64,000 bases of DNA from a virus (lineage: Duplodnaviria > Caudoviricetes), in IMG/VR virus record IMGVR_UViG_3300023060_000001, positions 1 through 64,000 of that record. One strand, written 5' to 3'. Numbering within the stretch: the first letter of the stretch is position 1; each line of letters begins with the position of its first letter. The notes beneath the pieces are model-generated. The model was not told the origin of the DNA and did no database searches. It saw only the letters and a list, made by a program, of their open reading frames with translations. The translations under genes and the position numbers were made by a program. Shown piece by piece: positions 29,533 to 55,484 of this stretch.

Positions 29533-32500
29533 TTATTTTCCTCTTGCTTGAGTAGCTACTGACTCTTTACCAGCCAAAGCACGTTTAAGTTCATCCATTT
29601 GACCGTTGTTTATTACGATATTATTAGTAACAGTTGTTACGTTACCTTCGGAACTATTCCATAAACCAGATACACCACCGTATTTCATGTTCTCAGCTCC
29701 CTCTACAGGACGGAAAGCATCTGAAAAAGAAGTACCTCTATTTAGAATTCTTCCTATTTCAGCAGACTTACCTTTGTTAGACAGCTTAGCGAATTCTTCA
29801 GGAGATAAAGGCGATTTTTTAGCATTGAACCCTTTAAAACTTGAGTCCTTAGCGTAGAATTTACCGTCCTTTTCTACAAAGTCGCTGGTTGTACCTTTTA
29901 AGAGGTTTATTTGTTTTCCATAAGTTTTCTCTATAAGACCTATTTTAGTATCATCTATCATTGAGTATAACTCGTCAATTGCAACTAATGCTAAACTAAT
30001 AGGTGCAAAAGCCCTAGCCCAAGATGCTGCCATAGACCAACTAGCTTTATGTAAAATAGATTGGAAAGATAGCAAGGTATGTATTGCCTTGGCACCAAGT
30101 AGTGTGTAGAAATTATCTATTGCAAACTTCATAACAGGTTCTAAAACTTTCAACCCCGTAGCAATAGCATTAAACACATCACCAAATATTTTACCTAATT
30201 TCTTAAGTTGGGGTTCTGAATTTTCAAAGATTTCAGATAATGTTCCATAAAGGTTAGATAACCCTTCTTCAAAACCTGAGTTGAAAATAGTTTTGCCAGC
30301 GCGTTGCATTCCAGTCATAAATTGACCTTCTTTAACACGTAATCCTTGTAAGGCTAGTGCATATGCTCCACCTTCTGTAGCAGCTTTTCGGAATTCTTTA
30401 GCCACTTTTGGTAGTACTTCTGCTGAAACTAGTTGACCCGCTTCCATCATTTTGAATAGTTCTGCTTCAGTGATTCCTAAAGCCCTAGTGAATATTTGCA
30501 CAGCACCCTTAGTGCAATCAACAACTTACGTAACCAAGTTGCCAGTTATTACCTTCAACCAAATAATAACTTACACACCTCTCGGTGTGGGTAGATCATA
30601 TCTTATACTACAGCATCACCTGTTTAGCATCCTCCCGTTTCGATTAGCCATTAACTTGCTAACCTACTCTACTCCCTTCCACCAAAAAGGTGTGGTTTCG
30701 ATGACCGTTGATCGTTCTTCTCTTTTAAAGAAGCTTCGATGCTGATTGCCAATATTATTAAGATTTTCAGGGGTCGTTACTACATTTCTGTGTAATATCC
30801 TACTTAATACTTAACTTGGGTTTCCAGCAGTTAAAGAGGTTTATTCATCATTGATTTCTCAATGAGTACCCAGTGTTACTTAGGTAAACTGTCGCCTAGC
30901 TGATTTTTGAGTTCCTCCAGTAAAGCTAATAAAATCAATAACTTAGCTAAACACCTACACCTTCTCAGGGTAGCCTGATCATATCATAACCCTCGCCACT
31001 CTACGTTAGGGTTCCTGCTGTTTCTTCCTATAAATAGGTTCTACTATACTCGCTTACCAAAACTAATCTTTGCTAGTTTATCTGCTTTCTATGATCGATG
31101 AACGTGAAGCTACTTACTTTGTAGCTTATTCGCTGCTGATTGTCAATATTTTCAGAATTTTAAGGGGTCGCTACTATGTCACCATGTAGTATCCTATCTG
31201 AAACCTAACTTGAGTTTCCAGCAATTAAACAGGTTTTCGATAATAATTTCTTATTAAAGGGCCAAAGAACTTTTAGCCATTACTTTCCCTTTTGACATCC
31301 AACACCTTCGAACAAGTACGTTACCTCTTGCCCCGCAAATCCTTATTGCAGCTCTATATCGCTATAGAAGTTGAGACCATATCTTCACCCTCAGCCTTAC
31401 CTGTTTGGGGTTGTGCGCTTCCACTCACTTGAGTGTACAGATTTCATAAACCTCTAAGGTTCGTTTATCTTGGTCGTTACACCTTGGAAAGAATTACTTC
31501 TAACCCTTGGCTCGGTATTGTCTCTCGGAATAATTTATGATTTTGTTAAGATGTTCTATTTTTAGAATTGCCTTTTGAATCATTTCATCAGGTGTAGAAT
31601 CAAACTTAAAACTATTACAATCCTTACAGGAAAATGTAATGTTTTCGACTGTATTAGAACCGCCTCTAGAAATAGGGTTTATATGCTCAACTTCACATGT
31701 AGTATGGTTGATTGCGTCACCGCAATAAGCGCATGATTTATTGGAACTTTCAAATAAAGCTTTTAATTCTTTACCTGTTACAACACCTATACCCATGTGT
31801 TTTGTTCTTGCATTAGGTTTCGATGCTCTTGCATTCCAATAAACCACAGTTCCCGTTATAGCGTTACGCTCAAACCACACCCTATATTTTTCTTTGTTGT
31901 CATAAGTTTTATTTCGAATTCTAACACATTGCTTGCATTCTTTTCTGACTCCGTTTTTACCCTTCTTTTCTTTATGAAAGGAAGTTAAAGGCAATTCTTC
32001 GTTGCATTTAGAACATATTTGTTTAATCATATTATCACTCTTTTCGGTATTGTATATATTAATTATACCAAATAACAGTGTTATTTACAAGAGAGTTCCA
32101 CCGAATTCACACAATTTGTTCATGCCTATTACTAAGCAGCCAGACAATAATCGTCTATCTGGATCAAGGCTTTCTGACTTCGCTTGATGCTTTCATCATC
32201 TACCTTCAATGCTGTCCCGAACATACTCAACCCTGTGAATAAGTCCTCTTGTTCCGTTTGGGAAATTTTACCTTTTGATGCAAATTTAAACTTAACGAAA
32301 GCGTCTGTAGTATCTTTTAAACTAAGACCCATTTCATCAACAATTCCATTTATGAACATCATATCCTTTGCAGCAGCTTCCGAACTACCACTTGCAGCAA
32401 GCATAGAAGCCTCCATCCCCTGAAAACTCATGCCTACCCGCTTAATTGCACCCGTACCTTCAAAAATAGCGTACAAGCTTGCATAGCTGCGAATCATATT

Positions 32501-51549: not shown

Positions 51550-51623
51550 AGCTCTACGGCCTTAATAGAAGGGTTATTTGTAATAATTATATGCTTGTTG
51601 TAAAGGGTTGTCAAATTTCAGGC

Positions 51624-54302: not shown

Positions 54303-54493
54303 GGAATACCTCTTGAATTTGGAAGGCTGTTAAAACAGCTCTTATTATTGTAAAATATATTAATAAAGAGCACAAGGCTCTTGAGGAGGTCTATTATGAA
54401 AATAGTATTATGAAGATTAAAGAATGGATGTTCTTTATTAATATATCTCTGTTTATGTTGTAATTATAACACTTTGTTTAAGGGTGTGTCAAA

Positions 54494-54567
54494 TGGATGC
54501 CTTCGGTTGGAATTGAACCAACATATCCTCATTAAAAGTAAGTCGCTTACCAGTTAGCTACGAAGGC
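54494..54567 (-). tRNA. tRNA-Lys(UUU), slightly atypical
   Basis: Acceptor GCCTTCG/CGAAGGC; anticodon loop CTTTTAA; T-arm GTTGG-TTCAATT-CCAAC. Confidence 0.75.
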
Positions 54568-54568
54568 T

Positions 54569-54645
54569 TGGCACAAGAGGTAAGATTCGAACTTACAACC
54601 GTCTCCTTAGAAGGGAGATGAACTATCCAATTGTTCTACTCTTGC
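54569..54645 (-). tRNA. tRNA-Arg(UCU)
   Basis: Full cloverleaf: TCTCC-CTTCTAA-GGAGA, GTAAG-TTCGAAT-CTTAC, encoded CCA. Confidence 0.93.
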
Positions 54646-54653
54646 TAAAAATA

Positions 54654-54744
54654 AATAACCCTATCCACAGTAGCGACTCTGTGTGCAAGTCGGGTTAACT
54701 CTTGCATAAAGACACCTGATGCCAATAAAGACAACGGCTCCTAG
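54654..54744 (-). ncRNA. unassigned pseudoknotted RNA, copy A
   Basis: Three hairpins plus loop/3'-tail pairing; stems covary with copy B. Confidence 0.7.
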
Positions 54745-54930
54745 CCTACATACCTAATATATTTTATATACACCGCACAGGTACATCCTTCTACTTCCAA
54801 GCTTTGCTTTTCAGCTTCTGCGGTAACGGTTTAATTCCAACTTACAATCAAGTTACCATACAATTGTACATCAGAGATAGGGCGGTAGGATAAGGAAAGA
54901 TATACAATCTTCCATACACCCCTTTTAAAA

Positions 54931-55019
54931 AATAACCCTGTTCGAGTAGCGACTCTCGTGCAGATCGGGTCAGCTTCTGCATAAAGACACCGTTAGCTAG
55001 TAAGCATAACAGTTCCTAA
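54931..55019 (-). ncRNA. unassigned pseudoknotted RNA, copy B
   Basis: Near-identical loops and linkers with compensatory stem changes relative to copy A. Confidence 0.7.
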
Positions 55020-55081
55020 GGTATTCTCTATGTAACCAAATTCACTCCCTTTTATAGAAGTAACTACTTTCAGTTACATTA

Positions 55082-55435
55082 TTAATAACCTGAAAGTTGT
55101 TCTAATACTTTAGATTCAATCTTAGCTAAAATGCATTTAAGATTGTCAGATACATCACTTTTACCTGAGGATAATCTACTGTAGAGAATACCCAAGCCAT
55201 CAATGATATCTACGGTAAAGTGACTATCTTTTTCTAATAGGTCTAAATTAGCCTTAATCTTTCCCTCTATAGACTTTAGTACACCCACTGTATCATGTCT
55301 TAGATAGTTATCTTCTCGGAAAATCCTAACATGAAGCTTACCTAAAGTATCTAACTTACCTAAAATTTCCTGAACACTCATTAATCTCTCCTCCTGTGTT
55401 AATAAATTTAGGTGAAAAGTCAATTCCTGCTGCAC
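55082..55435 (-). CDS. hypothetical protein
   Basis: Follows a TTGACA..TATACT promoter; may start at MSVQ after AGGAGG. Confidence 0.6.
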   Translation of the reverse strand: MQQELTFHLNLLTQEERLMSVQEILGKLDTLGKLHVRIFREDNYLRHDTVGVLKSIEGKIKANLDLLEKDSHFTVDIIDGLGILYSRLSSGKSDVSDNLKCILAKIESKVLEQLSGY

Positions 55436-55484
55436 AATTCACCTTATACGATTAAGTATACACTAATTTAAAATGTTGTCAACT

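Follow-up and report, generated by a model that had tools for sequence, protein, structure and literature searches.

A predicted pseudoknotted RNA element without an Rfam match in phages of Pseudoalteromonas

The window analysed here is the first 64 kb (positions 1 to 64,000) of a 129.5-kb phage genome with terminal repeats, IMG/VR record IMGVR_UViG_3300023060_000001, which has a relative in the Pseudoalteromonas phage J2-1 (genus Qingdaovirus). Our subject is an element of about 95 nt that is present twice in the window, as copies A and B lying 277 nt apart on the minus strand, which is also the strand of the surrounding genes (Table 1). A sigma-70-type promoter upstream of copy B is likely the start of the transcript carrying both copies. 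Copy B is followed by an open reading frame (ORF) of 14 codons and a spacer of about 125 nt, and copy A by tRNA-Arg and tRNA-Lys. These two tRNAs are the only ones in the 129.5-kb genome and read the codons AGA/AGG (Arg) and AAA/AAG (Lys). Either cargo in this genome comes with its own copy of the element. A preliminary description, made from the sequence letters, had reported two look-alike copies on the minus strand at this place; both are indeed present, and all of its statements about the sequence hold.

Table 1. Features of the element locus in the window, listed in the direction of transcription.
Feature	Position	Strand	Details
Sigma-70-type promoter	55455..55482	-	TTGACA-16-TATACT; promoter scan
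117-aa ORF	55435..55082	-	without Pfam match
Hairpin	55101..55062	-	spans the stop codon of the 117-aa ORF
Copy B	54930..55021	-	CCUUAGGA motif, P0, P1, P2, pseudoknot, beginning of U-rich tail
Copy B motif	55021..55014	-	CCUUAGGA
Copy B P0 hairpin	54989..55013	-	ACUGUUAUGCU UACU AGCUAACGGU; -8.7 kcal/mol; 0.8% of shuffles fold as well
Copy B P1 hairpin	54959..54981	-	UGCAGA (54981..54976) / UCUGCA (54964..54959)
Copy B P1 loop, 5' pseudoknot strand	54972..54967	-	UGACCC, in a loop of 11 nt
Copy B P2 hairpin	54943..54958	-	CGAG (54958..54955), AGUCGCUA, CUCG (54946..54943)
Copy B 3' pseudoknot strand	54933..54938	-	GGGUUA; G.U pair with the G of the loop
14-aa ORF	54871..54915	-	MEDCISFLILPPYL; ribosome-binding site AAAAGGGG; cargo 3' of copy B
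Copy A	54653..54744	-	CUAGGAG motif, P0, P1, P2, pseudoknot, tail; directly 5' of tRNA-Arg
Copy A motif	54744..54738	-	CUAGGAG
Copy A P0 hairpin	54714..54738	-	
Copy A P1 hairpin	54684..54706	-	UGCAAG (54706..54701) / CUUGCA (54689..54684)
Copy A 5' pseudoknot strand	54697..54692	-	UAACCC, in the P1 loop
Copy A P2 hairpin	54666..54683	-	CACAG (54683..54679), AGUCGCUA, CUGUG (54670..54666)
Copy A 3' pseudoknot strand	54656..54661	-	GGGUUA
A/U-rich single-stranded tail	54646..54655	-	UUUAUUUUUA; 10 nt, from copy A to tRNA-Arg
tRNA-Arg (UCU)	54569..54645	-	first cargo of cassette A; ARAGORN and Rfam
tRNA-Lys (UUU)	54498..54567	-	ARAGORN
Sigma-70-type promoter	54463..54492	-	TTGACA-18-TATAAT, 12/12; right-hand border of the cargo slot; promoter scan; kept in relatives

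Read from its 5' end, the element consists of a CCUUAGG motif, a hairpin (P0), a GUCU linker, a second hairpin (P1), a third hairpin (P2) that abuts P1, and a 4-nt linker ending in A; these are followed by a strand that pairs with the P1 loop and by an A/U-rich tail. The predicted fold is an H-type pseudoknot in which P2 is inserted in the third loop, with P0, P1 and P2 as its three hairpins. The repeat reaches about 30 nt further 5' than the part detailed in the preliminary description, which adds P0 and the CCUUAGG motif. The two copies agree exactly in their loops and linkers (GUCUUUA, ACCCGA, AGUCGCUA and AGGGUUAUUU) while the stems change in pairs, as had been noted from the start, and each stem difference between the copies preserves pairing. 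In P2, two pairs are changed on both sides, and copy A carries a paired insertion in addition. A covariance model built from the element's own family (R1) scores copy B at 111.7 bits (E 3e-21) and copy A at 110.7 bits (E 5e-21), and no other place in the 129.5-kb genome scores above 13 bits. It should be pointed out that the single-sequence folding energy of the element is ordinary (z about 0), so the support for the fold comes from comparison and not from thermodynamics.

Building a covariance model and looking for homologues had been proposed together with the preliminary description, and relatives were found that bring further compensatory changes, including some in the pseudoknot. The searches combined pattern scans of IMG/VR and metagenome sequences, protein-anchored locus searches and blastn of GenBank phages, and they returned only eight distinct sequences. 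The family amounts to nine copies in eight Pseudoalteromonas phage genomes: the present one, J2-1, PH357, H101 and four IMG/VR viruses (L003, L006, G002 and L029). As locus labels, L015 stands for G002, L026 for PH357 and L043 for H101, and winA and winB are copies A and B of the present genome. Four other loci (L007-L010) were discarded as chance pattern matches in GC-rich coding DNA. Every genome has one element locus, which speaks against a dispersed repeat; no further copies were found elsewhere in the genomes, the element is single in six of the eight, and only the present genome has two full copies. As a separate observation on repeats, the 10-mer AGGGTTATTT occurs six times in the window against 0.33 expected; its four sites outside the element (25372, 51570, 57613 and 61571) are on the plus strand in unrelated contexts, the one at 51570 just downstream (minus strand) of a perfect TTGACA-17-TATAAT promoter.

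The eight distinct sequences were aligned with MAFFT without being fitted to any structure (alignment A6), and 17 base pairs were counted in the lower P0, P1, the pseudoknot and the outer P2. All 136 of 136 cells pair on this alignment, and 7 of the 17 pairs are changed on both sides. None of 500 shuffles reached these pairing values, and sliding the 3' partners by 1-3 columns as a control left 23-43% pairing and at most one pair changed on both sides. P1 takes the forms UGCAAG/CUUGCA, UGCAGA/UCUGCA and UGAGAG/CUCUCA, with four of its six pairs covarying. P2 is found as CACAG/CUGUG, CGAG/CUCG, CAAG/CUUG and CACG/CGUG, and in H101 as an 8-bp stem (CACAUAGA/UCUAUGUG) with a larger loop; its inner pairs and the paired insertion also keep pairing. 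The lower three pairs of P0 are kept in 100% of the eight sequences, and the upper stem has several different sequences, every haplotype of which folds. The P2 form CAAG/CUUG is combined with three different P1 stems, and such mixed combinations of P1 and P2 variants point to recombination inside the element. A supposed coupling of the P1 type with the linker (GAU/AAC) was dropped, since PH357 breaks it.

The pseudoknot pairs in all eight sequences. Among close members it is invariant except for two one-sided changes, A-U to G.U in copy B and U-A to U.G in PH357. In the divergent H101, however, it reads UGGCUC/GAGCUA in place of UAACCC/GGGUUA, so that all six pairs are kept with two of them changed on both sides; the pseudoknot with an inserted hairpin that had been proposed from the two copies is thereby borne out. 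A second pseudoknot suggested by a folding prediction, GGUG with CGCU of the P2 loop, was rejected: it cannot coexist with P0, shows no variation, and is missing from H101. Eleven G.U cells of the alignment would be A-C mismatches on the plus strand, which indicates transcription in the same sense as the genes; these wobble pairs are compatible with the gene strand only, in line with the earlier suggestion of an RNA on the tRNA strand. Beside the stems, a small set of unpaired bases is near-invariant: GGUGUC, the G that follows the pseudoknot strand, UCGCU within the P2 loop and the A that precedes the 3' strand.

Judged by this comparison, the two stretches are copies of a real, well-supported folded RNA that is absent from Rfam, and the structural reading of the preliminary description is right. 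A scan of the window at the gathering thresholds of Rfam 15 (4227 models) gave no match on the element, and with E up to 10 the region 54400-55200 returned only the two tRNAs, plus chance hits elsewhere. The Rfam comparison that the preliminary description had called for has therefore turned up no family matching the element, and there was likewise no Rfam match on it in the L015, L026, L003 or L006 loci. The element could be one of the 8,495 unnamed IMG/VR candidates of PMC10690425, a catalogue in which 10,006 candidate structured RNAs from viruses are listed. Two exact patterns of the element had no match in 185,579 prokaryote genomes, a search that would miss a diverged host relative; host origin or mimicry is not supported by this result.

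The sequence of the element is also unusually well kept. When the present genome was compared with the fetched loci of G002 or PH357 (blastn with 7-base words), the element was the only similarity detected, at 82-84% identity, and the exonuclease encoded next to it has 35-39% protein identity to its counterparts in the same two phages. Such a contrast is evidence that the element sequence may be under selection.

Could the conservation belong to the DNA or to a protein instead of an RNA? A DNA-level site (protein-binding dyads, a recombination site or a promoter) would suit the position of the element at the left border of a recombining slot and the existence of chimeric haplotypes. But the G.U pairs are strand-specific, compensation in a pseudoknot is meaningless for duplex DNA, and a single locus per genome is unlike promoter or repeat families. 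Neither sigma-70 nor sigma-54 promoter hexamers occur within the element, and an integron attC-like site was rejected as well, since core sites are missing and there is one locus only. A coding function along the whole element fares no better: the linker differs by indels of +1 and -2 and P2 by +1/+1, the stop positions differ, and these one- and two-base indels break every reading frame. A 64-aa ORF in G002 and an annotated coding sequence in PH357 merely run into the element. A reading as DNA or as part of a protein is already disfavoured and, in our estimate, extremely improbable.

A narrower coding alternative has more to recommend it, namely a translated leader mini-ORF whose translation would melt P1, P2 and the pseudoknot and couple downstream expression to ribosome traffic in the manner of an attenuator. 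P1 has an AUG at its base (UUG in H101), preceded at a distance of 3-6 nt by a Shine-Dalgarno-like (A)GGUG, and the encoded peptide begins M[QR][EK][LV][TA]R[LS][AS]. The start codon and GGUG are kept in 8/8 sequences, the indels upstream of the AUG leave the frame undisturbed, and in close members the four variable P1-loop positions are synonymous (GAG/GAA, UUA/CUA/CUG, CGA/CGC) while being all non-synonymous in the other open frame. However, the RNA model predicts the same loop positions to vary, since they are unpaired or tolerate wobble. Owing to the paired insertion in P2, copy A and L006 have a shifted frame, the ORF length ranges from 14 to 44 codons, and the changes in the stems are radical for a peptide (E/K, L/S, A/S, Q/R) yet exactly compensatory as RNA. 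P0 also engages the GGU of the Shine-Dalgarno-like sequence in pairing, and both P0 and the 3' pseudoknot strand are conserved outside the ORF. There is also neither a conserved U-run terminator nor a conserved, mutually exclusive alternative fold. We regard this explanation as quite unlikely. A boxA-like UCUUUA and a -1 frameshift slippery site were considered and given up as not conserved: J2-1 has UCUAGUA, and G002 is without it.

Among known systems, the preQ1-II riboswitch is the closest in topology, the HK022 put RNAs and T4 PeSL are the closest in genomic logic, and the stable RNAs of T4 are the closest in setting. The element is filed under none of them, because it fails testable defining features of each. 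The preQ1-II class (RF01054, COG4708 motif) has a dispensable 5' hairpin, a hairpin loop that pairs with the 3' tail, and an extra hairpin before the 3' strand. The element shares with it the H-type pseudoknot carrying a hairpin ahead of the 3' strand, which covariation supports, and a similar size of about 80-95 nt. In contrast, the element has no match to RF01054 at E<=10, its 3' strand does not hold the downstream ribosome-binding site, which has its own place 8-17 nt further on, its downstream genes, tRNAs among them, are unrelated to queuosine, and it occurs in phages of Gammaproteobacteria and not in Firmicutes.

The likeness raises the question of whether the element is a sensor aptamer, either riboswitch-like or a protein operator, in which a ligand or protein would stabilise the pseudoknot and alter downstream expression. 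Aptamers typically combine variable stems with conserved bases in junctions and loops, as is seen here; the topology is like that of preQ1-II, and in L029 the element lies in a 5' UTR (untranslated region), about 9 nt before a ribosome-binding site. Yet the cargo is functionally unrelated among the genomes and includes tRNAs, for which translational control is meaningless, and no Rfam riboswitch matches at E up to 10. A competing fold that might serve as a conserved expression platform is missing too. The sole alternative, a closing helix 5' ACCUU / AGGGU put forward by RNAalifold, is broken in copy A and uncompensated in H101, unlike the pseudoknot, and was rejected as a part of the structure. 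An aptamer is thus unlikely, if slightly less so than the leader mini-ORF.

Small ribozymes are often linked to phage tRNAs, as in the case of theta ribozymes. A further reading is that the element is itself a self-cleaving ribozyme, of a class not yet described, and would trim the transcript beside its cargo. The element is compact and pseudoknotted, has invariant unpaired bases, and adjoins a tRNA 5' end in three of its copies. Pistol and the HDV-like (theta) ribozymes are likewise small, pseudoknotted and phage-borne, and the 6-bp pseudoknot of pistol also uses a hairpin loop. The 3' strand of pistol, which has a G-U cleavage site, however lies inside an internal loop enclosed by P2/P3, while that of the element is terminal and follows a closed hairpin; the HDV-like fold is a nested double pseudoknot (P1, P1.1, P2, P3 and P4) located 3' of a tRNA, while the element has a single pseudoknot and lies 5' of one. 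The topology is therefore unlike either, and neither model matches the element. Hammerhead, twister, twister-sister and hatchet models do not match either at E up to 10, in agreement with the preliminary description, which had recognised none of hammerhead, twister, pistol or HDV. Moreover, tRNA 5' ends are already made by RNase P, and most copies are not next to a tRNA. Self-cleavage appears to us very unlikely.

Turning to the neighbourhood of the family members, the element always lies 3' of the exonuclease gene and a sigma-70-type promoter, and 5' of variable cargo and the next strong promoter. A counterpart of the upstream promoter was found 5' of the element in J2-1, G002, PH357, L029 and H101. 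The single copy of J2-1 stands 5' of the same two tRNAs as in the present genome, and that of L003 stands 5' of a different tRNA-Arg and a tRNA-Gly. In G002, a 142-kb virus with identical sequence also in two Tara contigs, the element is followed by a 25-aa ORF and, after that, tRNA-Gly. L006 has a full copy, then the same 14-aa ORF and spacer, and then a truncated second copy. The element of L029, a 132-kb virus, precedes the ribosome-binding site of a 125-aa ORF, that of PH357 is followed by unannotated sequence, and H101 (genus Shandongvirus) has a divergent version with a promoter-like site 3' of it. Counted by the next unit, 3 of the 9 copies abut a tRNA (winA, J2-1 and L003), 4 an ORF, 1 a promoter and 1 unannotated sequence. 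All four ORFs have a ribosome-binding site: the 14-aa ORF of winB and L006, the 25-aa ORF of G002 and the 125-aa ORF of L029. The gap from the element to the tRNA 5' end is 1-10 nt and that to the Shine-Dalgarno sequence of an ORF about 8-17 nt, and of the first 12 bases 3' of the pseudoknot 7-12 are A/U in all nine copies.

The element is not strictly tRNA-linked. In relatives the slot holds tRNA-Arg together with tRNA-Gly, or only a tRNA-Gly, and the fetched loci of PH357, L029 and H101 contain no tRNA, from which it follows that tRNA cargo is exchanged freely at this slot. The proposal of a new tRNA-associated phage RNA class accordingly survives in one half: a structured RNA absent from Rfam is retained, and the tie to tRNAs is not supported in the form proposed.

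Several details of these loci deserve a note of their own. In the spacer of the present genome, two stretches at 54834-54867 (-) resemble the D-loop region (11/13) and the T-arm (13/14) of tRNA-Arg in the same order, about 16 nt nearer each other than in the tRNA, as if they were the remnant of a tRNA-Arg without its anticodon arm. The spacer is conserved in L006, and such a remnant would fit a past duplication of element plus tRNA. The 14-aa ORF MEDCISFLILPPYL recurs 3' of the element in L006 (~640-685) as MEDCTYFLILPPYL; four codons differ between the two versions, two of them synonymously and two not. At ~790-830 of L006, the P0 leader GGAACUGUUAUGCUU runs straight into the tail UAUUUUUAGCAA, which is normally 5' of tRNA-Arg, and then comes an ORF; this truncated copy is evidence suggesting deletion or recombination at the element. 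In G002 (L015:1312-1440) and PH357 (L026:2098-2226), another conserved non-coding stretch, about 115 nt long, comes immediately after the upstream promoter of the element and is predicted to form a multi-branched RNA closed by AAGAGUUG/CAACUCUU; it has no Rfam match, its two sequences offer no covariation, and it is absent from the window. A further conserved hairpin, located about 10-40 nt 5' of the element (UUACGUURGAUUCGUAA, then GCCCUGAA), is common to L029 (3893-3930) and H101 (L043:2428-2462). Other structured parts peculiar to one clade may also be present in the leader. Away from the element, Rfam finds a group I intron (64 bits) at 30955-31284 (-) of the window and two such matches apiece in L003 and L006, which are related contigs.

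How might such an element work? The reading we favour is that of a cis-acting leader that heads each cargo cassette of the early sigma-70 transcript, and we give it a probability of roughly 40%. A constant border, variable cargo, an A/U tail, a short gap, one copy per cassette in the two genomes that stack cassettes (the present one and L006), and mixed haplotypes would be explained most economically in this way. Acting in cis and at the RNA level, the element would form the standard head of every cassette on one early host-polymerase transcript reaching from the exonuclease gene to the next strong promoter. Its compact fold would give any cargo, whether tRNA, mini-ORF or gene, a defined and autonomously folded 5' neighbour together with an open A/U tail. 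Ribosomes or host nucleases (RNase P where a tRNA begins, RNase E within the tail) could then act at the junction of element and cargo; the cargo would be insulated from upstream sequence and the upstream RNA left with a nuclease-resistant 3' end. At the DNA level, the conserved copies may provide homology for swapping and stacking cassettes, which would explain the two copies in the present genome.

Two phage systems have a comparable logic. The put RNAs of HK022 are cis-acting antiterminator RNAs of about 70 nt in a lambdoid phage, made of adjacent stem-loops downstream of early promoters; there are two of them, diverged from each other, with compensatory changes between their stems. Neighbouring stem-loops and a pair of copies that differ in a compensatory manner are seen here too, and we take this as a resemblance only: put has no pseudoknot, and there is no evident terminator 3' of the element to read through. 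T4 PeSL (promoter-early plus stem-loop), whose repeats flank shuffled genes, is likewise a conserved non-coding module that heads interchangeable cassettes as an apparent recombination anchor. It differs in being an early promoter plus a simple hairpin with many copies per genome, at intergenic sites, while the element lacks promoter hexamers, is pseudoknotted and has one locus per genome.

Some of the evidence, it has to be said, weighs against a cassette leader. Plain hairpins would suffice for insulation and 3'-end protection, without near-invariant unpaired bases. The conserved CCUU of the 5' motif is not accounted for by a leader, and in H101 the promoter-like site that follows the element means that the downstream gene may not depend on it. 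Taken together, the near-invariant bases, CCUU and the H101 promoter argue for something more specific. In addition, the eight distinct sequences come from one phage clade and the formal power for covariation is low; with so few related sequences, the statistics are formally weak.

A more specific role would be that of a stand-alone small RNA, cut from the early transcript by RNase P or RNase E and acting in trans. Its target would be another RNA, reached by base pairing, or a protein of the host or the phage; it might, for instance, be a decoy for some factor of defence or RNA processing. The element sequence is conserved whatever cargo lies downstream, it has near-invariant single-stranded loop bases, it sits in the phage's only RNA-gene cluster and is duplicated in the present genome, and in H101 a separate promoter follows it. 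On the other hand, the element has neither a promoter nor a terminator of its own. A scan for intrinsic terminators finds none on this strand, and there is no conserved U-run: the sequence 3' of the pseudoknot strand is UUUUCGGG in L003, UUUAAAUG in G002 and ACUAUAUU in H101, in which the U-run is short or absent. No partner was identified. A 7-nt complementarity of the P2 loop to tRNA-Lys is confined to the present genome and probably due to chance, and the prokaryote genome search mentioned above lends no support to simple mimicry of a host RNA.

Species 1 and 2 of T4 (rnaC/rnaD), which are small structured RNAs co-transcribed with phage tRNAs, offer a parallel in setting, with the difference that the element also occurs without tRNAs. 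The preliminary description had further thought of a type III antitoxin mimic. This idea fails on the features examined: ToxI-like antitoxins are short tandem repeats (~34-45 nt) next to an endoribonuclease toxin gene, while the two copies here lie 277 nt apart and most genomes have a single one; no toxin domain was found in the six proteins neighbouring the element, and the two exact patterns gave no host look-alike in the 185,579 prokaryote genomes. A trans-acting RNA remains, in our view, a doubtful but serious contender to the cassette leader. Somewhat less probable again is a new class of small functional RNA, so far limited to Pseudoalteromonas phages, whose invariant unpaired bases would form the active or binding site of a self-cleaving ribozyme, a small-molecule aptamer, or a processed decoy for a host protein of defence or RNA processing in early infection.

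Well-supported new RNA folds are uncommon, and in the present case compensatory changes in three hairpins and a pseudoknot come from as few as eight sequences. In several comparisons of phages that have otherwise diverged, no nucleotide similarity apart from the element could be detected. Its narrow distribution limits its weight at present; J2-1, PH357 and H101 are, however, isolates with named hosts on record, so that its function may be directly testable. If the element turned out to be a ribozyme, an aptamer or a decoy, it would represent a new RNA class. If it is a portable cassette leader, it would show large lytic phages standardising the expression of swappable cargo of tRNAs and small genes.

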